Below, piece after piece: positions 8,739-39,983 of a DNA stretch of 64,000 nt; position 1 is the stretch's first letter; the number at the start of each line of letters is the position of its first letter. Location of the stretch: positions 1 to 64,000 of the IMG/VR virus record IMGVR_UViG_3300047095_000292, one strand, 5' to 3'. Made by a program: the position numbers and the translations under genes. The notes under the pieces were generated by a model. That model ran no database searches, was not told where the DNA came from, and saw only the letters and a program-made list of their open reading frames with translations. Source of the DNA: a virus.

Positions 8739-9245
8739 TTAAGCTATTGTCACTTTCCATGCCACGGTTAATGTATCATTAACGCCCTTGTTAATCACAG
8801 CGTACACAATCCGATTTAGCATAAATACAGTATTTGCAGTCACAACGTTGAAGATACCCGCTTCTGTCAATGCACCGGTTCCGGTACCTGCAGGAAAGGT
8901 TGCGGCATATGAAACGCTATCGCTTACTACGTTACCGGATACAATAGTAGGCGTAGCTACAACACGTGAGGCACCCACTGGTGTAATCAAAAGTGTATCT
9001 GCTGCTGCTGCCGTTTGCGTAGACGTTCCAACTTCCATCCAACCCATTGTTACAGCATTAGATGTAGTATATAAGCCTGATAATTTAGCTGCAATATGCT
9101 GACGGCCAGAAGTAGTGATAAGATTAGAGCCTTCACGTTCTGCAATAACATTTCCATTTTTATCTGTAAGTACAAGTTCTACGTAGCCCTTCATACCTAC
9201 ACTGTCTTCTTTCCAACCGTTAGGTCGAATGATGATATTGCTCAT
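8739..9245 (-). CDS. Tail fibre/collar structural protein
   Basis: NLITTSGRQHIA...GTGALTEAGIFN...INKGVNDTLTVAWKVT pattern of fibre-attachment proteins. Confidence 0.7.
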   Translation of the reverse strand: MSNIIIRPNGWKEDSVGMKGYVELVLTDKNGNVIAEREGSNLITTSGRQHIAAKLSGLYTTSNAVTMGWMEVGTSTQTAAAADTLLITPVGASRVVATPTIVSGNVVSDSVSYAATFPAGTGTGALTEAGIFNVVTANTVFMLNRIVYAVINKGVNDTLTVAWKVTIA

Positions 9246-9255
9246 TTGTTATCCT

Positions 9256-10224
9256 TTAAAATGTTAAGTTTGTACCTGCGTAAACTTCAGAGAAGTATGT
9301 AAGGTCAACATAATCGAGATTCATAAAGACACCACTTTCACCGATACTTGTAGTATCTAATTCACTAAGATTTACAACGTATGCAGCAGCCTCAATTATT
9401 GCGGAGGTATCAATTAATGATCTATCAAACATAGCAGTATTATCCACTATCTCAGCAATTGATGTTGCATCTACGTATATCTTATCTAGCCCGCTTATAA
9501 GGGCTTCTGTAGCAGACGTCACATCTGTACCCAATACCTTGCTAGGTATGATACTTAATACTTCGGAAACAGAAGTGGCATCTGCAAACGGTTTAGTAAG
9601 ATCATTACTTATAGAATCGATGTTAGAAAGCGAATCATCATATATCCTATCAAAAACAGAAAGGGTATCAAGAATCTCAGCAATTGATGTATTATCATCT
9701 ATGGCCTTATTACTAACGAACAAAAGACTATCAATAACACTAAAGCCATCTGCAACTAAAAGAGGCTGTATCAGTGTAATCAATACCTGCTCACTTAGAT
9801 ATGCAAAGTCTGTTGATGAAAGCGGGTACCAGATTCCATTAATATAGTCGAAGGTTTCGCTAGTAATAGCTGTTTCATCGAAGTTCGCGAATACATATTT
9901 GATATACGAGAATATATCAGTGACGTCAATAGTAGAATCTTTCATGACATCTACATGCTGTACAAGACTCTCAGAAATACTCGCATATATCAGTTTCGAT
10001 AGATACAAGTCAGGTCCGGGATGTATACTATTGACACCAGGTATTACAATCTCAAAGACGGGCTGTACAACTTGCTCACTAATGGCTAGAGCTGACACAT
10101 TGGTAGTTAAAGCGACAACAGGCAAGACTACCGTGTTTGTACGCTCAACTGTTGAAGTAGATACTGTCGAGCTTTCGGGTAGATTTACAGTTATACGCTT
10201 AACAACTTCAGTTGGCGTATACAT
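9256..10224 (-). CDS. Acidic repeat-rich virion structural protein
   Basis: Roughly 18-19-aa D-x-T-S-I-x-E repeats; located in the tail module. Confidence 0.7.
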   Translation of the reverse strand: MYTPTEVVKRITVNLPESSTVSTSTVERTNTVVLPVVALTTNVSALAISEQVVQPVFEIVIPGVNSIHPGPDLYLSKLIYASISESLVQHVDVMKDSTIDVTDIFSYIKYVFANFDETAITSETFDYINGIWYPLSSTDFAYLSEQVLITLIQPLLVADGFSVIDSLLFVSNKAIDDNTSIAEILDTLSVFDRIYDDSLSNIDSISNDLTKPFADATSVSEVLSIIPSKVLGTDVTSATEALISGLDKIYVDATSIAEIVDNTAMFDRSLIDTSAIIEAAAYVVNLSELDTTSIGESGVFMNLDYVDLTYFSEVYAGTNLTF

Positions 10225-30612: not shown

Positions 30613-33600
30613 TTAACCGATTCCATACCAGTACCTGTTATCTTTAAACTGTCCAGGGACAGCTGCAAGGATATCTTCTCTGGTTAGAATATCTGCCTGC
30701 GTTAATAGCTTACCATCGATCCTTGACCTTCCAGCCACAGGTATCAGACCAATATCGATAGCTTCATTCATGTACTTTAGATATAACTCACGCGGCATTC
30801 CGCGAGCGTACATTTCATCTAGAGTAGCTTTTATTGATTCACTTTGTACTGCTCTTGCATAGATTTCTTTTAAGGCCTGACGAGATTCTAACATATCTGC
30901 TGCATTTGTAAAGAAGGCGTCGTGTCTTTGTGTTCAAAAATGTTCGTTAAACATTCTCAGTATTGTCGAGTTAGTTATTTAATAATTCTTCCAAGTGTTA
31001 CCAATTCTTATTTGCCTAATAGTGCTAGGATGCGCATTGTAGCTAACTGCAATTTCAGCATCAGATATTCCATTCTTAATTTTAGATCTTATATCAGGAA
31101 TGTTCTCTGCTGTTATCTTGCGGGTCCGCAACTTACCACCATAACGACCAATCACTTCAAGACCTAAATGTGTCCAGCTCTCGCCAAGGCGTATTGCGTT
31201 AATAGATTGACGTGTGACACCATACATAGCAGCAATCGCGGTATCTTTATACCCTACTGACATATAGTATATAATATCAGGAATATCGTCCTCTACTAAA
31301 ACAGATTCCGGTCTACCAGAACCATTTAGCATAAGACCTGTATCATACGCATGTTGGACGTTTTCACGAGGTGTTGCCCACGCTAGATTACCAACTACGT
31401 TATTATCTCTAATTCCGTCTAAATGATTTACTTGTGTTTTGTTTTCTGGATTAGGTATAAAAGCTTCTGCTACAAGTCTATGTACTTTCGCCCTGAATGG
31501 TTTACCATCTACTTCTATTTTAAAATGTCTATAACCATTTTGCAATGAACCATACGTAAGCAAACCAGTGCTTTCGCGCCTTAATCGCCCCAAACTGCTT
31601 ACAGCATATCTCTTATCTTTATTGCATATACACCAAAATTCTTCCATTACATTTACTCCTTGTGTCTCGACAACACATCTGCATATTACTGTGCAGAACA
31701 GACTATATCTTCAACAGCCTTATTGCTAGCTGTTGCCCCGCGTTTCGAGCAGACTTCTGCCCTACTCTACTTGGTAGTTACACCGTTCGATAGTCGTTGC
31801 ACCTTGCTCTTGCGAGCCTTGGCTCAGGATTGCCCTTATGAGGGTGTCCCCTGAATTAGCGGAGTTTTACTACGGCAAGTTATTCACCGTACCTGTTTGA
31901 ATATTATTCTTTTGTCCCCATAGATGAAATTGCTTTACGATAACCGCATCGTTCAGTTTGTTCAATAGTGTTCGTTAAACGCTATCGGTATTGCGCCAAT
32001 TAGCATTTTACTTCCTTTAATGTTGCTTGGCGCGCAACACCTGCATGTCACCATGCAGCTCAGACTATCTCTTATACTATTACTAGTATCTCTACGTTTC
32101 GAGCAGACTACTGCCCTATGGACTTCATCTTCTGTTCTAGAAGGTATGTCCTAGTCGTTGCACCTTCAAAACCATTCCTGGTTAAGCTTGGCTCAGGATT
32201 GACTCATGGAGTGTTTCCCTGAATTAGTAGAGTTTATTCACAGCATTTTGTTTACTGTGATTACCGTTTACGGCGTAAGCCGTTCTAGCCTTGCCAGTAT
32301 CTACAATATCGTTAATAGTACCTTTCTTATTTAGGAAGTACTGTTCCCATGTTGTAGGCTCTGTCTTTTGCTGTACCTGAATAATATTATTTATCCATTT
32401 ACCTTCAGCATTTTTGTATGCAAGCTTCTCTTCAAAGGTCTGCGTAAATACCTGTTCCAGAGTTTTACCATCAAAGTTTACCCATGGAATATTAGTCCAA
32501 GACTTTGGTAGCTTATTATCGTAACCAACCTCAATACCTTTGGTAACATCGATACCGGCTATATCAAACTTACCGATTGTAAAGCCAGTCTTTCGATCAA
32601 CAGGAGATTTATAACCCATGATAATATTAGAGACAGTACTGTCTGGCACATATCCGGGAATACGATTAAGTATCTTTTCTTTAATACTTTCATCCTTAAT
32701 CCCAAGTGTACGGCTTAACCATTTAGGTAGTCTCTTACCTGCTTTATAATCACCGTATATTGCAGTCTTTAGAGTAGACACAGGGGCAATACTAGCTGCC
32801 TTTGGTTTAGCATGTAAGGCATAATCCTCAGCAAGTCTACCGAAGAACTTAGTAAAGTCCTTTAAGATAGGTACTTGTGATCTTAAATTCTCGGACATGA
32901 TCATTGCAATCTGTTGAAAATCGTCAGGTGTCACGACCTTGCCATATTCCCTGCTAAGTTTCTCAACAAAGTCTCTTGTACGGGGTTCAAGGAAATATAG
33001 TTGTTCAAGCATATCATCACCAGGAGCTAAGCCCTTATTGAACATATCCTTCACATCTTGTCGCAATGCCTTCAGTTCTCGATACATATCTGGATCGAAT
33101 TTTTCATATCGAGCCATCCTTGCACTGATCTCCGACATGACAGCATCACGCTCACTGGCCTTTACAACAAGAAAATTTTCCTGCTTCTCTAATACCTTAG
33201 CAAGTTTGTTTTCTACGTTCATAATGCCTGTACGCTCGCCTGCTCCGTAAAATGTTACCATATTTTGCATTTATGTTTAGTATGATTCGTTAAGTCATAC
33301 TGGTGTTATTGTCAAGTTTGTTAATTAGTAATTAGTCCAAGTTTTCTTTGCTATTCTTAATACTACCCATATTACTTACGAAGTATGGTAAGTTGTCTAT
33401 CTGTTTCCAAATCTCGTCCATTTTATACTTTCACATGTGTCTTGACAACACCCTGCATGTTACCATACAGATCAGACTATATCTTCAAAGTAGCATAGCT
33501 ACGATGTCCCCCGTTTCGAACTCACTTGAGTCCTACGTCTTTCGACTAGTCGTTGAACCTTCAAAAGTGTTTCCACTTAAGCTTGGCTGCTGATTGTCCT

Positions 33601-36600
33601 GCAACAGGAGTTTCCAGCAATTAAAGGGATTTTACAAGACCAAAAATTAGCCTTGGAAGCCTTACGCAAATCTTTCTCTGTCAGACCTAGCTTCTTGTTA
33701 AGTTCTCTGAACCTTGGATCATTAAAGGTACTTGCTGCTATCTCGTCGTATAACCTCTGCTTCTGATTAGTAGGTACCACATTACTAAGTTGAGCTAATT
33801 GTTTATTCTTTGTGGCAAGTGCAATAATCTGTGCTCCAGAAGAGCTAGCATCTTGCTCTAGTGCGATGGCTATCTTATAGCTGTTAAGCCTCTTCAAGCT
33901 AGCCGCAGAATAATCACCTCCTAAGTATTCGTTTATCTTAGACATCTCTAAAGCAAACCGTAGGACTTTTCCCTGTTCCTCTCCGTCGATCTCCTGTAAA
34001 AATTTTGATTCTAATATTTTGCGTATATCATTAGGCTTACCACGACGCATCTGATCACCAAGTTGTATCATGTCTTTGCGCCACAGTGTAGCAATCTGTT
34101 GTCTACCAAGTACTGATAGCGAGTTATACCTGTCTTCTAGATGATCAGATGCTCCACCTAGAAAGGCTCCTATCTGGTCCTGGAAGTTAGCAAACTCAAT
34201 ATCGCTAAAGTTCTTAGCCTGCGCCGTGTTTAAAAACGGTCTACGTTTATGTTCAACAGTATTCGTTAGATACTGCCAGTACTTACCAAGCATTGTTATT
34301 GTTTAATAGTTTTTCCAGGTCTTACCAGATATAATGCCAGAGATAGTGCCGCTATGCACATTATAATCTCTGCCAATAGAAGCTAAACTTTCTCCAAGTT
34401 CGTGTCTAGTTCGTATATCTGGAATATCCTTACCTGATAGTTTTTTCTCACATATGCTACTTTTAGGACTCTTAGCTGGAAACACTAAGTCTGGTCTAAC
34501 TTGTTTCCATGTATCCAAGGTTCGTATCTTAGATATTGTTCCTTTATTAACACCAAACAGCAATCCTATTTCGGTATTATTTAACTCATATTCTACAAAT
34601 AGCTTTTTAATATTTTCGACATTCTCTTCATTTAGAACAGCTATGTATGTATCCGAACCAGAAACGCACATATCATTTGACCAAGCGTGTTTCATATTAT
34701 CTACATGCGAAAGCCATTCTAAGTTTTCTACTCGATTATCCGTTTTCACTCCATTGATATGATTAACTTCAAGTGATAGATCTTTATTTTCTATAAACGT
34801 TATTGCAACCAGACGATGCACTGCAATCGTAATATCATCTATATTTACAGCTAGATAACCTTTGCAGTTATCTTTAACTTTTAGCAGTTTCTCACTTTTA
34901 TTCGACCATACATTTCCTAGAGTGCTAATTAAATACTGCGTATTCTTATACTGTTTCCAAATTTCTGTCATGTTAATCTTCCATGTCGTGCTTGGCAGCA
35001 CTTCTGCAATTTCGTTTCCTTATATGCAGACCAGACTATATCATCACCGCTGTCATAACAGTACGGTGTTGCGCGCTTCCATCGGACTTCCGATGTACTC
35101 CCGTAGGATAGTCGTTGAACCTTCAAATTCATTTCTGAATAAGCTTGGCTGCTGATTGTCCATTAACGTATGGAGTTTCCAGCAATTCACGCAATTTTCG
35201 ATGTATATTACTATACAAAGCTTCTGATAACAAAAGTTTCTCCGCTTTGAGGCCCAATAAAGCCTCGTTCATATATACGTGCGCGATGATCTAGGAAGGG
35301 ATGATTGCTGAATGCAACATCCTTTGTCCTAAGCCATTTCATTGACTTAAGCCTCTCATATGCATCACCACGTTCAATCATATACTCACGATACTTGTTC
35401 AAATCATTGTAATACTTAGCTGCACCCTTATCATCTTGAAAGTTTATAAGCTTCTCAATGAAATCATGAAAGTCTGGATCTACCTTGTATTTTGCTGACG
35501 CTGCCCAATTAAGAGCCCTTGTCATATCTTTATCAATTAACTTGGCAGGGAAATCGCTAAAGGAACTTGTAGATGTAATAGGAATTCGAGTATCCATTAG
35601 TCCATACATACCCCTATCAACAAAGTATGTTTTATAGCCCTCACGTATCAAGAGTCTATTACTATCTACAGTAACACCAACACGAAGACCCACATCTACC
35701 TTTCGAGTAAGTCTAGCATACTCTTGAATCCTGGGATCTACAATTCGTAGATTCACTGAGAATGTATCATAGTATGGACCAAAATATGCTCCAAAGTTTC
35801 TACTCTTCATTCTACGTTTCTGTACGCCAAAGGTCTCTAATTCATAGAAGCCCTTACCATGCGCGTCATCTAACAGCTTTACTCCAAGATTATACCATTC
35901 GTTACGGCTACCACGATAGTTAGCCATATTATATAAGTCACGGCCTAGTGCAACTGCTAATTGGTCTCTATCAGGTGAGTCTGCTAGACTAAGACGCCTT
36001 GCAAACTTTAAATAGAAATTATCCAACTGTTCATCATCTAGCCTTATCTTTAATTTAGCGGGTAGCCTGAAGTCTAGTATGTTACGTAACTCTTTAGCGA
36101 TCTTCGGAGCAGTGCGATCTTCCCATTTATTCTTAGCAATTATATTAGAAATAAAGTTATCATGTAGCTCTTGTAACTGAGTTGGACCAAGAACTGGATC
36201 AATATAATTAGCTTGCTTTAATTTGAAAAGAAGATTAGCATCTTTTCTAATTTGAGTCTCGATATAATCAGATACGTTCATAATATCAAACTTAATCTGA
36301 CCTTGTAAGACAGCCTTCATGTTAGTCCATGGCTCTTTGTTATCACGAAAACGCCCAAAAGTTATCCGGAGATTTTCAGTAATTACTGCCCTCTCGTTAA
36401 CACCCATGTGATCTTCAAGGCCATCTACAAAGTTCTTAATGAACTCTTTATCTCTAGGTAGAAGAGACTCACTCTCATCTACAAGTTTATACGTATTACG
36501 CAATGTATCAGGACTTGGTTGGTACATACGGGAATCATCGTACCTGCCAGTGATCGGATTATATTTTAAATTCTCTTCTCTAGGTGGTGATCCAAGTACT

Positions 36601-37862
36601 CTTGCCTTAGTATTCTTTTTATTATGTAGTAAAGTGCCTCGATAATTCGTAAGAGAAAGCGTACCATCTAGCTCTCCTGATTGCAATATGTAATATTCTT
36701 TAAGAGCTTTCTGGAGTTCCTTATTGTCATAAAATTCATCAGGTCTTGCTGCACCTAACTTAATTACATCCAGTCTCTCCTTCGCCAACGCGAATCTTCG
36801 AGTGTCACCTGGAATTCCATACCCAGAGTCAGTAAGACCTCTAAGCTCTCTAATCCCGACGCTATTGCCGCCTGCATTAGAGAACTTGTCCAAGGTAAGC
36901 TGTCCTGATCTAAATAGCTCAAGCTTTGTTGTATCGCCAATGTGCTTGAATTGCACCTCAACGGGTTGTCGTTGTAGCCACGCATTATATGATTCCTTAA
37001 GAGGAGTTTGTCCATCGTATAAGGCAATCTGTTTAGCTGACAATCCTTCAAAATTCCTTTTGCGAATTTGTGCAATACCCTCTAACGAACCGAGTTGGTC
37101 ATAGCTCTTAACTATTGGTATTGTCGTCGATCTGCAGTACCAGTGTGCTGGTGGCAGATGCTCATGGTCACTTATCGGGTAGATAGTTCCATCCCTTGAC
37201 GCACATAAAGGGGTAGTCCTAGAATCTAATACGGCAACATATTGCCATCCTTGTAATGCCTTTTCATTAGCTTTGTAAACTTCATGGTCAGCCTGAGCAT
37301 ATACACTTGTCGTAGCTGTAACTGTAAGGCCTTTAGCCTGATTCTTTGTTATATTAAAGGTAGACTTAGATATAGACTTAGCAATTTCATTTTCATTAAG
37401 ACCTTCTGCTATACCTTTTCTAATCAGCCCTTCAATACGTATCTTCTCATTCTTTCCAATCCCTGCCCAGCCCTGATCTAGTGTTTTATCAAGGTATATC
37501 GGCCTGTGCAATACAATATCCTCTGCAACACGCCTAGGCGGTTGTGATACTCGCCAGATACGTCCAATTGCATCATCCATATTTTGAACAGCATAGGAAG
37601 TCTGATCCTTGAACAAGTCTAAGAGAGAACGGCTAGACACATTGTGTGCATCTGCCATTGTCTTTATAATTTCTTTATCGAGACTTGCTTGAAAGCCTTT
37701 AAAGCCTGTTCCACGTAACTTTGATTCTTTGATAAGACTATCAACGCGCACTGCATGTCCATCAATAATTAACTCTACTTTATTAGAAGTACGTTGCTCA
37801 TATAAGCGTATCATTGCTGCACGATTGATACTCTTATCATAAATCTGTGTATTAACATTCAT
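30613..37862 (-). CDS. MuF (SPP1 gp7-like) minor head protein fused to T7-family single-subunit RNA polymerase; 5 exons (37862-35233, 34243-33649, 33267-32254, 31953-31886, 30925-30613), 1539 aa spliced
   Basis: MuF: WQYVAVLDSRTTPLC...PPAHWYCRS. RNAP: LDHRARIY...PQSGETF/RPFL, motif A EQDASSSGAQI, motif B RKASKA/QNMVTFYG, NHS/NDA, motif C TV/HDAF. Exon lengths sum to 4620 nt in frame. Confidence 0.92.
30926..31885 (-). mobile_element. Group I intron 4 (960 nt) with homing endonuclease
   Basis: P1 UACGGU/GCCGUA with U-G; core AAUUCAGGGGA, AAUCCUGAGC, GUGCAACGACUA, AAGAUAUAGUCU; terminal G; splicing restores V-H-D-A-F. Confidence 0.92.
30979..31647 (-). CDS. Intron-encoded NUMOD4/HNH homing endonuclease (I-HmuI-like) with two C-terminal HTH repeats
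   Basis: YAVSSLGR, HRLVAEAFIPNP, VNHLDGIRDNNVVGNLAW, GNTWKNY. Confidence 0.9.
   Translation of the reverse strand: MEEFWCICNKDKRYAVSSLGRLRRESTGLLTYGSLQNGYRHFKIEVDGKPFRAKVHRLVAEAFIPNPENKTQVNHLDGIRDNNVVGNLAWATPRENVQHAYDTGLMLNGSGRPESVLVEDDIPDIIYYMSVGYKDTAIAAMYGVTRQSINAIRLGESWTHLGLEVIGRYGGKLRTRKITAENIPDIRSKIKNGISDAEIAVSYNAHPSTIRQIRIGNTWKNY
31954..32253 (-). mobile_element. Group I intron 3 (300 nt), no ORF
   Basis: P1 UCACAGU/GCUGUGA; AAUUCAGGGAA, AAUCCUGAGC, GUGCAACGACUA, AAGAGAUAGUCU; terminal G; restores H-S-N-D. Confidence 0.92.
33268..33648 (-). mobile_element. Group I intron 2 (381 nt) with deleted endonuclease remnant
   Basis: P1 CAAGGCU/GGUCUUG; AAUUGCUGGAAA, AAUCAGCAGC, GUUCAACGACUA, AAGAUAUAGUCU; terminal G; restores motif B R-x3-K-x7-YG. 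Confidence 0.92.
33325..33421 (-). pseudogene. Internally deleted homing endonuclease remnant
   Basis: MDEIWKQIDNLPYFVSNG* followed by KKTWTNY*, matching the N- and C-termini of the intron 1 and 4 endonucleases. Confidence 0.85.
34244..35232 (-). mobile_element. Group I intron 1 (989 nt) with homing endonuclease
   Basis: P1 CUUU/UG-UUAU-CAGAAG with U-G; AAUUGCUGGAAA, AAUCAGCAGC, GUUCAACGACUA, GAUAUAGUCU; terminal G; restores ETF-RPFL. Confidence 0.92.
34303..34971 (-). CDS. Intron-encoded NUMOD4/HNH homing endonuclease
   Basis: MTEIWKQY...YLISTLGNV, HRLVAITFI, VNHINGVKTDNRVENLEW, GKTWKNY. Confidence 0.9.
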   Translation of the reverse strand: MTEIWKQYKNTQYLISTLGNVWSNKSEKLLKVKDNCKGYLAVNIDDITIAVHRLVAITFIENKDLSLEVNHINGVKTDNRVENLEWLSHVDNMKHAWSNDMCVSGSDTYIAVLNEENVENIKKLFVEYELNNTEIGLLFGVNKGTISKIRTLDTWKQVRPDLVFPAKSPKSSICEKKLSGKDIPDIRTRHELGESLASIGRDYNVHSGTISGIISGKTWKNY

Positions 37863-37870
37863 GATAATCC

Positions 37871-38347
37871 TTAGGACGGCTTATGAAATTCCCCATGATG
37901 TTCAGCCGTAACAGCATCACGAGCCTTGCTTGCTTCCTCTGCAGTATCGTATAGACCGATAGTATGGCGGTTTCCATCAACCACCACCCTCGCCCTCCAC
38001 TTACCACTAAATTTATCTATCCCTTTAAATCCTGACGTGTTAGTACTAGGTGCATTTCTATTCTGCATATTTTGTTCGGCAGTAGCAGGTCGCAAATTTT
38101 TTATACGGTTATTGAGACGATTAGTATCTCTATGATCAACTTTCTCAGGTATGTCGTCATGATGCAACATATAGATCAATCGATGGACCTTATATGTTTT
38201 ACCACCATATTTCACCTGCAGATAGCCTTCGCTATTCTTAGTGCCCACAGGAGAACCCTTAACTATTGAAGGGCCTCCATTAATATTCCAGAACAATTGA
38301 CCGTCTTTATAGTAGAATGTTTCTTTAATCTGCTTCTGGGTCAGCAT
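37871..38347 (-). CDS. Free-standing HNH-AP2 endonuclease
   Basis: HRLIY, VDHRDTNRLNNRIKNLR, NTSGFKGI; likely start MLTQKQIKE. Confidence 0.88.
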   Translation of the reverse strand: MLTQKQIKETFYYKDGQLFWNINGGPSIVKGSPVGTKNSEGYLQVKYGGKTYKVHRLIYMLHHDDIPEKVDHRDTNRLNNRIKNLRPATAEQNMQNRNAPSTNTSGFKGIDKFSGKWRARVVVDGNRHTIGLYDTAEEASKARDAVTAEHHGEFHKPS

Positions 38348-39983
38348 TAGGCTTAGCCTTCTTAAGTGGTGTCTTAGCTTTAGGTGTTGATATACCAGCC
38401 ATGTCTGCAACCTTGCTAGCATAGCTGTCGGCATCAACTTGGCCCATCACCATATCATCTTCAGTAATCTCGATCTGACCCTCTTCGTCATTATAATCAG
38501 GACTAATCATATCATTAACTTTGAGAATCTGTAGCCAAATAGAACGAGGAATGAGTCCACTCTGATACCATTCAGTAGCAAGACGTAGCCAATCAGCACC
38601 AAGTGGGGTTGGATTAAAGTCAGCAGACAACTCAAACTCAATATCAGTATTTTTAAGCTGTAAATCATAGCGCCAGTTAAGCATAAATGCAATAATAGAC
38701 GCCATCTGATTACTTACTTTAATATTAAGAGTTCCTAATTGAGCAGTCTGAGCAGCATTACGAATGTCCAGTGCAACACCTGACTGTTGAGTTTCTGGTG
38801 TCAGCATACGAATACCCAGCTTAGCCATATCCTCAATAGCAGATGCAATAGCTCTATCCATGTCTGTAAGTGCAGCAGTAGGTGTATCAAGGACAGTAGC
38901 TGTAGCACCTTCTGGGAGCTTAAGCCAGGTGCCTAAACCGGCATCTACAATTGCATCAAAAGCATCATCAGTTATATTTCCCGTCAATACAGGTGTATAC
39001 GTAGACGCGCCATACAACAGATGATTACGTCGGCTCATTTTATTATATAGTGCAACTTCCTTATCAATAAAAGGAGATAGCATAGGTTCAATAACACGAA
39101 TTGAACCATTTAATGGCCATGCAGGAATCTGTGTAAGACGCTCGCCATTCATTAGAATAGTTTCAAGTGTCTCGACTAGCTCATAAGCTGACAATTTAGG
39201 ATCAGCCCCAGCTGCATTCTGCGTATACTTCTGTTGTAGTTTGCCGTTAACAACAATCACCTGCGCATCTTCTACCTTCTTCTCATATCTACGGATACGA
39301 TAGAAACCTTCTACGATTTCATGTACGATAACAGTATCTATATAAGACGGATGAAATTCGTTTTCTTCAACGCGCTCTACGTAGTTTCTAACGATAATCT
39401 GTTCTAGAGACTGTACACCAGTATCCTCTCGAGTCGATACTCGCCAATTAATTATAGATTCAGCGTTCCATATTACAGGATAGGGTTTCAGTTCAGCATA
39501 CTGTTCCCTAGTAAGATCTTCTGGGTTTAATATCTTAGGATAGTCTACATACACCCATGCTCTGCTTGTCTGAACTTCTTCCCATAGAATTTCATCAAGA
39601 AAAGAGACCAGCGGTGAGCTATTATGGCTAAAGTGATTCATTATCCATTCATATGCTCCAGCTGGCACCTTACCTTCTGGAAGCTTAAGCTGAGGTTGTT
39701 TCCTTAACAGACCACCAATAATAATGCGAGCATATTGAGAGACAATACCTGGGAGTTCTGCTTCTGCCTTGTAGAATTCATATTGCTTTGCATCCATTGA
39801 GGGCGAGAAAGGGATCAGCAAATTGCTAAATGTCAGTACATCAAGGTAGCCATCAAAGTCCTTAGCAAAACGCTCACCACCTATAATTGCTCTCGATTTT
39901 TCCCATAAACCTCTCATTGACTCGTATGAAGATGTTGGATCTGCTACTGAACGCTTGTGTTGAACTGCATTGACTACTGACAT
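38325..39983 (-). CDS. Portal protein (DUF4055-type)
   Basis: 552 aa; AWVYVDYP, PYPVIWNAESIINW; position upstream of MuF gene. Confidence 0.85.
   Translation of the reverse strand: MSVVNAVQHKRSVADPTSSYESMRGLWEKSRAIIGGERFAKDFDGYLDVLTFSNLLIPFSPSMDAKQYEFYKAEAELPGIVSQYARIIIGGLLRKQPQLKLPEGKVPAGAYEWIMNHFSHNSSPLVSFLDEILWEEVQTSRAWVYVDYPKILNPEDLTREQYAELKPYPVIWNAESIINWRVSTREDTGVQSLEQIIVRNYVERVEENEFHPSYIDTVIVHEIVEGFYRIRRYEKKVEDAQVIVVNGKLQQKYTQNAAGADPKLSAYELVETLETILMNGERLTQIPAWPLNGSIRVIEPMLSPFIDKEVALYNKMSRRNHLLYGASTYTPVLTGNITDDAFDAIVDAGLGTWLKLPEGATATVLDTPTAALTDMDRAIASAIEDMAKLGIRMLTPETQQSGVALDIRNAAQTAQLGTLNIKVSNQMASIIAFMLNWRYDLQLKNTDIEFELSADFNPTPLGADWLRLATEWYQSGLIPRSIWLQILKVNDMISPDYNDEEGQIEITEDDMVMGQVDADSYASKVADMAGISTPKAKTPLKKAKPNADPEAD

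Follow-up and report, generated by a model that had tools for sequence, protein, structure and literature searches.

The first 64,000 nucleotides of IMG/VR record IMGVR_UViG_3300047095_000292, here referred to as the window, belong to the genome of an uncultured phage of ~92 kb (91,907 bp, complete according to CheckV). On the minus strand, from position 37862 to 30613, the window carries a gene which is divided into five exons by four group I introns. Its product joins a MuF minor-head domain to a single-subunit RNA polymerase (RNAP) of the T7 family, and the gene is therefore named MuF-RNAP gene here.

The exons were joined by script along the minus strand at the predicted junctions. The resulting 4620 nt form one frame with a single terminal stop and encode 1539 amino acids (aa). 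At the four junctions the residues ETF/RPFL, SKA/QNMVTFYG, NHS/NDA and GT(V)/HDAFF are brought together, and the predicted junction nucleotides are GAAACTTT/TAGACCG, AAGGCT/CAAAAT, CACAGT/AACGAT and ACGGT/ACACGAC, respectively. Two of the junctions are located within codons (phase 2). Introns 3 and 4 are separated by 68 nt. The frame would be kept if exon 3 alone or exons 2-4 together were skipped, and lost if exon 4 alone were skipped.

An initial annotation of the window had placed the four introns at the boundaries given in Table 1 and had named ETF/RPFL, motif B, HS/ND and the codon before the HD of motif C as the interrupted motifs. Sequence reading and exon joining proved the boundaries to be exact and all four junction motifs were reproduced. 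The 68-nt exon which it had described as invisible to callers of open reading frames (ORFs) corresponds to exon 4 and has no start codon. Furthermore, its calculation of an 883-aa product from unspliced RNA is arithmetically correct (ORF 35211-37862): a stop codon is found 7 codons into intron 1, so that unspliced RNA encodes 883 aa including the only MuF domain of the genome.

Table 1. Coordinates of the MuF-RNAP gene, its introns and related features. Positions refer to the window or, for the second RNAP, to the complete record or the locus named; insertion sites are numbered according to the 1539-aa protein of the window.
Feature	Position	Strand	Size	Remarks
Exon 1	37862-35233	minus	2630 nt	ends in codon phase 2; MuF and N-terminal polymerase part up to ...PQSGET(F); colinear with relatives
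Intron 1	35232-34244	minus	989 nt	core ~35232-35004; RF00028 match 35243-35004 (81.8 bits); TAACGAA 34268-34262; terminal G 34244
Intron 1 endonuclease ORF	34971-34303	minus	222 aa	from ATG
Exon 2	34243-33649	minus	595 nt	RPFL..., motif A (ALEQDASSSGAQ), first half of motif B (RKASKA); aligned to DSS3_VP1 and EBPR siphovirus 1
Intron 2	33648-33268	minus	381 nt	core 33648-33453; RF00028 match 33659-33453 (89.4 bits); 3' hairpin; terminal G 33268
Intron 2 endonuclease remnant	33421-33335	minus	29 codons	NUMOD4/HNH endonuclease gene
Exon 3	33267-32254	minus	1014 nt	QNMVTFYGAG (second half of motif B) to ...AVNGNHS
Intron 3	32253-31954	minus	300 nt	ORF-less ribozyme; RF00028 match 32287-32041 (71.9 bits); 3' hairpin; terminal G 31954
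Exon 4	31953-31886	minus	68 nt	micro-exon NDAVIVKQFHLWGQKNNIQTGT(V), no start codon; matches continuous sequence of relatives
Intron 4	31885-30926	minus	960 nt	core ~31885-31679; RF00028 match 31933-31679 (78.7 bits); 3' hairpin; terminal G 30926
Intron 4 HNH endonuclease ORF	31647-30979	minus	222 aa	
Exon 5	30925-30613	minus	313 nt	including stop; (V)HDAFFTNAAD..., motif C, C-terminus ...YWYGIG; aligned to T7 IHDSFGT
3'-terminal hairpins	34255-34277, 33279-33301, 31963-31987, 30935-30958	minus		UAACGA loop motif
Free-standing HNH_3 (+AP2-like) endonuclease gene	37871-38437	minus		between portal and MuF-RNAP genes; HNH_3 50 bits
Portal-like gene	38328-39983			DUF4055
Second RNAP, same phage	89390-90724			outside the window; canonical, uninterrupted, T7-like; PF00940 212.7 bits
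Second RNAP, locus L052	1426-3690	minus	754 aa	ORF
Insertion site F877	phase 2			window intron 1 only
Insertion site A1072	phase 0			L042
Insertion site A1075	phase 0			window intron 2, L218
Insertion site V1079	phase 2			EBPR siphovirus 1, L023, L038
Insertion site F1081	phase 2			L012, L042
Insertion site G1083	phase 0			L022
Insertion site G1410	phase 0			L012, L038
Insertion site S1413	phase 0			window intron 3
Insertion site V1436	phase 2			window intron 4 only

Ribozyme cores of the four introns

Introns were called with the Rfam covariance model RF00028 at its gathering cut-off of 50 bits. All four introns scored above this cut-off (71.9 to 89.4 bits) with E-values of 1e-16 to 1e-21, and the four matches were the only ones in the whole 91,907-bp genome. 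A covariance-model search had been one of the checks named in the initial annotation, which had further claimed a U·G pair at the 5' splice site, a terminal G, the P, Q, R and S core elements and a 3' hairpin with TAACGAA for each intron. All of these were found. The P1 helices (CUUU/AGAAG, CAAGGCU/GGUCUUG, CACAGU/GCUGUG and UACGGU/GCCGUA) each contain the U·G pair and the terminal G is likewise present in four of four introns. The core elements are represented by AAUUGCUGGAAA (P), AAUCAGCAGCC (Q), GUUCAACGACUA (R) and GAUAUAGUCU (S), and the 3' hairpin is located 17-18 nt before the terminal G in all four introns.

For the structural comparison the four introns of the window were aligned with nine homologous cores from relatives and folded with RNAalifold. 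The helices P1, P3, P4, P5, P6/P6a, a P7.1/7.2-type hairpin, P8 and P9 were predicted for these 13 introns, and compensatory double changes were present in 42 of the 51 predicted pairs. The P4 helix, for instance, varied among the introns between GCUGG/CAGC, CAGGG/CCUG and CGGUG/ACCG. The P1 column pair was U·G in 8 of the 13 aligned introns, and the P7 strands GACUA/UAGUC were invariant in the alignment. After GACUA each of the four window introns carries an insertion of 31-53 nt, with a covarying hairpin at columns 246-262. Michel and Westhof reportedly defined subgroup IA in 1990 by additional hairpins (P7.1/P7.2) that lie between P7 and the 3' strand of P3; by these hairpins the four introns fit subgroup IA.

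The stem sequences of the 3'-terminal hairpins differ among the introns and the loop region UAACGA(A) is kept. The same hairpin module was also found in introns of several relatives (loci are given here as L-numbers, which label IMG/VR or GenBank loci carrying relatives of the gene or matches to the R element). As a possible partner of the loop, a complementary CGUUA was located in intron 1 and in the L022 intron, in both cases within the P5 loop. It was absent from introns 2-4 and hence no consistent tertiary contact can be proposed for the UAACGA loop.

The initial annotation had also separated introns 1 and 2 from introns 3 and 4 as two sequence subtypes. The helix signatures agree with this separation (GCUGG/CAGC and GGUUC in introns 1 and 2, CAGGG/CCUG and GGUGC in introns 3 and 4), and overall identity supports it only weakly. 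Core identity was 69% between introns 1 and 2 and 64% between introns 3 and 4, compared to 64% for introns 2 and 3, 63% for introns 2 and 4, and a range of 58-64% between the groups. The closest core to intron 3 (80% identity) was that of L038b, which is inserted 9 nt upstream in another phage.

The host protein and its uninterrupted relatives

The MuF domain (PF04233) spans aa 143-248 with 61.1 bits and is the sole MuF match in the genome. The gene lies between an adjoining portal-like gene and other head genes. A minor head domain of the MuF/SPP1 gp7-like type is thus present according to both the Pfam cut-off and the portal neighbour.

Within the polymerase part, the motifs A (DASSSGAQ), B (R..K......YG, RKASKAQNMVTFYG) and C (VHDAFF) were invariant in 13 relatives and align to T7 residues. 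The match to T7 RNAP in the PDB had an E-value of 0.004, with HSQD/HSND and IHDSFGT/IHDAFFT (IHDSF/VHDAF) aligned. PF00940 scored above its cut-off on the intronless orthologues, namely 27.1 bits for DSS3_VP1 and 23.8 bits for EBPR siphovirus 1 gp49. In addition, a structure model and a PDB profile were built from the 13 close relatives. The fold search with the model against 48,161 chains returned N4 RNAPII (Z 12.5), yeast mitochondrial RNAP (11.5), T7 RNAP (10.9) and human mitochondrial RNAP (10.0) as the top four. All of these are single-subunit RNAPs, aligned over 308-358 residues, and the next chains had Z values of ≤6.8. The modelled polymerase part would accordingly adopt a right-hand fold like T7 RNAP.

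A second, canonical T7-like RNAP is encoded outside the window (Table 1), so that the phage has two single-subunit polymerases, one fused to MuF and one free. When the 13-relative profile was compared with this canonical RNAP by hhalign, motif A alone was aligned (probability 1.4%, E 0.037). A T7-like polymerase domain within a large virion-delivered protein is also known from coliphage N4 gp50, which differs by having neither a MuF fusion nor introns. By analogy, the MuF domain and the position of the gene suggest that the fused polymerase may be incorporated into virions and injected; for N4 gp50, in contrast, delivery by the virion is known.

In the orthologous polymerases of L012 (5074-5426), L044 (5283-5737) and L029 (6084-6433) insertions of ~115-150 aa were observed. 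They were considered as introns and rejected, since they are in-frame protein insertions. Two of them are located just before motif A and carry a ParB-like DG(L/Y)HR motif.

The predicted product aligned without gaps across all four junctions to gp108 of DSS3_VP1, an uninterrupted protein of 1463 aa from a roseophage of the Naomviridae. Examples are GEMVRPFLND compared to GETFRPFLNT of the window, and NGNHSNDAVIVRRFHLWGRKEGISTGTIHDAFFTN compared to the joint of exons 3, 4 and 5. The orthologue of EBPR siphovirus 1 (L005, JF412302) was continuous at junctions 1, 3 and 4, and its gp49 shared 51% identity with the product of exon 3. In both phages the orthologous MuF-RNAP (gp108 and gp47/gp49, respectively) is located beside the portal and is colinear with the window protein at 33-56% identity. 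The gene of DSS3_VP1 is intronless, whereas that of EBPR siphovirus 1 contains one intron, which lies 11 nt downstream of where intron 2 is inserted and carries a different HNH gene.

Two sets of relatives were collected from IMG/VR, which contains at least 430 of them. The first set comprised 45 loci found with exon 3, of which 34 showed no interruption in the portion of the gene that they cover. Among them, L009 shared 80% identity across residues 1-1539 in one open frame. The second set consisted of 72 further loci, and a single alignment passed through junctions 1, 2, 3 and 4 in 69, 72, 71 and 71 of these, respectively. The second scan is biased toward uninterrupted genes and is unfit for intron frequencies, because one of its search patterns sits in motif B. 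Megablast against GenBank phages yielded nothing beyond short endonuclease matches. The exons of the window shared 52-86% identity with intact homologues and contained neither frameshifts nor stops. Since the relatives read through the junctions, the predicted mRNA represents the form that most relatives encode directly. Moreover, the introns are dispensable add-ons, because more than 100 relatives encode the same protein uninterrupted.

Insertion sites and endonucleases

Conservation was measured in windows of 11 residues over 13 full-length relatives. The insertions had been annotated as lying in or beside conserved RNAP motifs, and the measure bears this out: sites 1, 2 and 3 were at the 98.6th, 97.4th and 99.2nd percentile, i.e. 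in the top 1-3% of conserved windows, a level reached by 2.9% of positions. Site 4 reached only the 73rd percentile, owing to the variable upstream half of its 11 residues, yet it is located directly before the invariant HDAFF.

The gene family is polymorphic for introns. Relatives carry between zero and two introns in their MuF-RNAP gene, as checked with RF00028; their junctions were mapped by requiring that the exon ends in U, that the intron ends in G and that the conserved motif is restored. In total nine insertion sites were found (Table 1), of which five lie no more than 33 nt from motif B. The sites A1072 and A1075 are 9 nt apart and each follows the guide-pairing hexamer AAGGCT. At the intron 2 site, L218 carries a 965-nt intron at exactly the same position, with an intact endonuclease of 221 aa and a core of the intron 3 type. 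The intron of EBPR siphovirus 1 is 850 nt in size (9189-10038) and interrupts the Val codon of KAQNMV/TFYG; with 40.5 bits it is below the RF00028 cut-off, at an E-value of 1.3e-8. In GenBank this orthologue is split into gp47 ('head protein'), gp48 ('HNH endonuclease') and gp49 ('hypothetical'). Introns of this clade are not confined to the gene, as only two of 114 viral contigs sharing the 16-nt R element were MuF-RNAP genes.

As a side observation, L042 (4524-5760 of IMGVR_UViG_3300031657_000084) contains two motif B introns with an exon of 26 nt between them, and L232 looks alike.

The endonuclease ORFs of the window are found in introns 1 and 4. The former contains HNH_3 and NUMOD4, the latter HNH_3, with PF13392 scores of 34 and 39.6 bits, respectively. 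Both are related to I-HmuI (PDB 1U3E; E 3.8e-9 and 5.2e-10) and share 31% identity with each other. Judged by their sequences, introns 1 and 4 encode intact I-HmuI-type HNH endonucleases that are predicted to be active. An endonuclease ORF which follows P9 and precedes the 3' hairpin is also the arrangement of the T4 nrdD/sunY intron.

Intron 2 carries a remnant with a NUMOD4 match of 25.1 bits. This match is above the cut-off and covers profile positions 1-25 of 49. The homology was missed by tblastn with the remnant and found by the Pfam NUMOD4 model. The remnant leads into sequence that shares homology with the final codons and the tail of the intron 4 ORF, and the half NUMOD4 together with this ORF end indicates an internal deletion in intron 2. 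Intron 3 has no endonuclease ORF; a ribosome-binding site, an ATG and 14 codons are left. The free-standing HNH_3 gene between the portal and MuF-RNAP genes is a distant relative of the two intron endonucleases, with ~31% identity across the HNH portion.

Intron invasion, alternative explanations and known systems

We consider it highly probable (~0.88) that the MuF-RNAP gene was invaded by four mobile group I introns of the subgroup IA type, all of which must splice. Being ordinary mobile group I introns of the known selfish kind, they do not represent a new mechanism. Four introns of one widespread phage intron clade would have entered the gene, and the pre-mRNA would undergo four guanosine-initiated self-splicing events that restore the frame, the motifs B and C and the HS/ND segment. 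Retention of any intron would lead to a truncated, catalytically dead product. The endonucleases of introns 1 and 4 presumably drive homing into intronless alleles of co-infecting relatives. The endonuclease genes of the other two introns would have been lost, in intron 2 by internal deletion with 29 codons left and in intron 3 almost wholly, and these introns could then spread only by co-conversion or with help in trans.

Several points weigh against this reading. The P10 pairing of intron 1 appears weak by eye. Sites 1 and 4 were occupied in no other sampled locus, so that there is no independent occurrence of these two insertions. With regard to the protein, PF00940 stayed below its cut-off on the window exons taken singly (exon 2: 17.6 compared to 22 bits), and the profile of the 13 close relatives matched N4 RNAPII in the PDB with an E-value of only 0.14. 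The structure model was poor, with a mean predicted local distance difference test (pLDDT) of 54.8, and served for the fold search only. Finally, splicing in vivo as well as its efficiency and order are what we infer from the sequence.

Alternatively, the introns could have a regulatory function. Intron 1 in particular would then set the ratio or the timing of an 883-aa MuF-only protein versus the full MuF-RNAP by incomplete or delayed splicing. The early stop in intron 1 and the retention of the only MuF domain of the genome in the 883-aa product would suit such a role, and four serial splicing events must reduce the yield somewhat. However, more than 100 relatives, one of them 80% identical, have none of the four introns and can produce the full-length protein only, and a site 1 intron was present in no sampled relative. 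Introns 2-4 would be superfluous to such a switch. Moreover, the site of intron 1 is inside the polymerase part (T7 residues ~437-444) and not at the MuF/RNAP border, a position that speaks against a short isoform by design. We therefore regard this explanation as unlikely, and the proposal of the initial annotation that splicing limits or times production of the protein is not favoured.

It is considerably less probable that the gene is decaying, with the polymerase part as a pseudogene riddled with insertions and the MuF part alone functional. Four interruptions, two introns without endonuclease genes and the second canonical uninterrupted RNAP (212.7 bits) might be taken as signs of decay, but all exons are open and in register, the catalytic motifs DASSSG, R..K......YG and HD are present in intact form and the C-terminus is likewise conserved. 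The ribozyme cores all score 72-89 bits, and the exons resemble intact homologues as described above, free of frameshifts and stops. Separate translation of the pieces and their assembly, as for some endonuclease-split phage genes, is suggested by the annotation of gp47 and gp49 of EBPR siphovirus 1 as separate genes but has next to no probability, given that two junctions are inside codons, exon 4 has 68 nt and no start codon, breaks fall within the O-helix and immediately before the catalytic HD, and a ribozyme core is present at every break, including that of EBPR siphovirus 1 (40.5 bits, E 1.3e-8).

Taking the intron invasion as given, a competitive role can be discussed. In PhiPA3, the beta-subunit gene of the virion RNAP is interrupted by the gp210 intron, which is of group I and has an HNH endonuclease (Birkholz et al. 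2024, PMC11620839). Endonuclease competition was demonstrated there for PhiPA3 versus PhiKZ. As in the window, a group I intron with HNH resides in a phage RNAP gene with a product that is probably packaged into the virion. The PhiPA3 polymerase is however multisubunit and cell-like, from a jumbo phage and interrupted by one intron, whereas the window polymerase is single-subunit, T7-type and interrupted by four. The PhiPA3 endonuclease is used against co-infecting relatives, and by analogy those of the window phage are likely used or usable in the same way. Such a competitive role appears to be a more attractive open idea than timing by splicing.

More speculatively, the whole MuF-RNAP family might be an arena of endonuclease warfare between co-infecting relatives, with the allele of the window 'armed and immunised'; we offer this as a tentative idea. 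If it were true, the four introns would destroy four endonuclease target sites in the most conserved DNA of the polymerase, and two live HNH enzymes together with the free-standing neighbour would cut the injected-polymerase gene of intronless competitors. The nine sites, their accumulation around motif B (five within 33 nt) and the core swapping at one site could then be read as footprints of an arms race.

The closest known counterparts are the group I introns with I-HmuI-type HNH endonucleases in the DNA polymerase genes of the Bacillus phages SPO1 and SP82 and the multi-intron genes of Twort-like phages and Bastillevirinae (PMC11878797). They likewise combine self-splicing IA-like ribozymes with HNH_3/NUMOD endonucleases, and they also interrupt the gene of an essential nucleic-acid enzyme at its most conserved codons, with several per gene and ORF-less derivatives alongside. 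Differences are found in the host, here a T7-family RNAP-MuF fusion, in the number of four introns compared to the published three, and in the endonuclease ORF, which here is located downstream of P9 and before the conserved 3' terminal hairpin.

Our literature search found no description of an intron in a T7-type RNAP nor of a MuF-RNAP fusion, and the T7-type RNAP is added to the list of phage intron hosts. Gp108 of DSS3_VP1 is annotated as 'head morphogenesis', and RNA polymerase is nowhere mentioned in the paper on this phage (Rihtman et al. 2021, PMC8323127). Gene callers see an 883-aa 'head protein' and fragments in the window, so that a probable virion-delivered RNAP is invisible unless the introns are removed. 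EBPR siphovirus 1 has suffered the same annotation loss (gp47/gp49). In the window gene, intact, truncated and lost endonuclease genes occur together, and with the nine sites of the family the system is good material for studying the jumping of introns to new sites and the decay of homing endonucleases.

The initial annotation had called four introns in such a gene unusual. This can be maintained insofar as the host gene is unusual and four exceeds the highest number of group I introns per phage gene that we found published, which is three (PMC11878797, citing Landthaler & Shub 1999). On the other hand, introns in phage RNAP genes have been published and clusters of four occur elsewhere. A chance find among the R-element matches was L143 (148-1763 of IMGVR_UViG_3300035070_001968), where four introns at RF00028 level (78.6-91.9 bits) are located within 1.6 kb in and beside a SU10-type major capsid gene. 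Its exons match profile positions 53-116 and 117-222, and at least three, probably four introns are located in one phage gene. L186 (308-3503 of IMGVR_UViG_3300036770_003355) is a major capsid gene of a nucleocytoplasmic large DNA virus (NCLDV) with four group I introns that belong to the same R-element clade. According to these two clusters, four introns per gene are a high number but not unique in public data.

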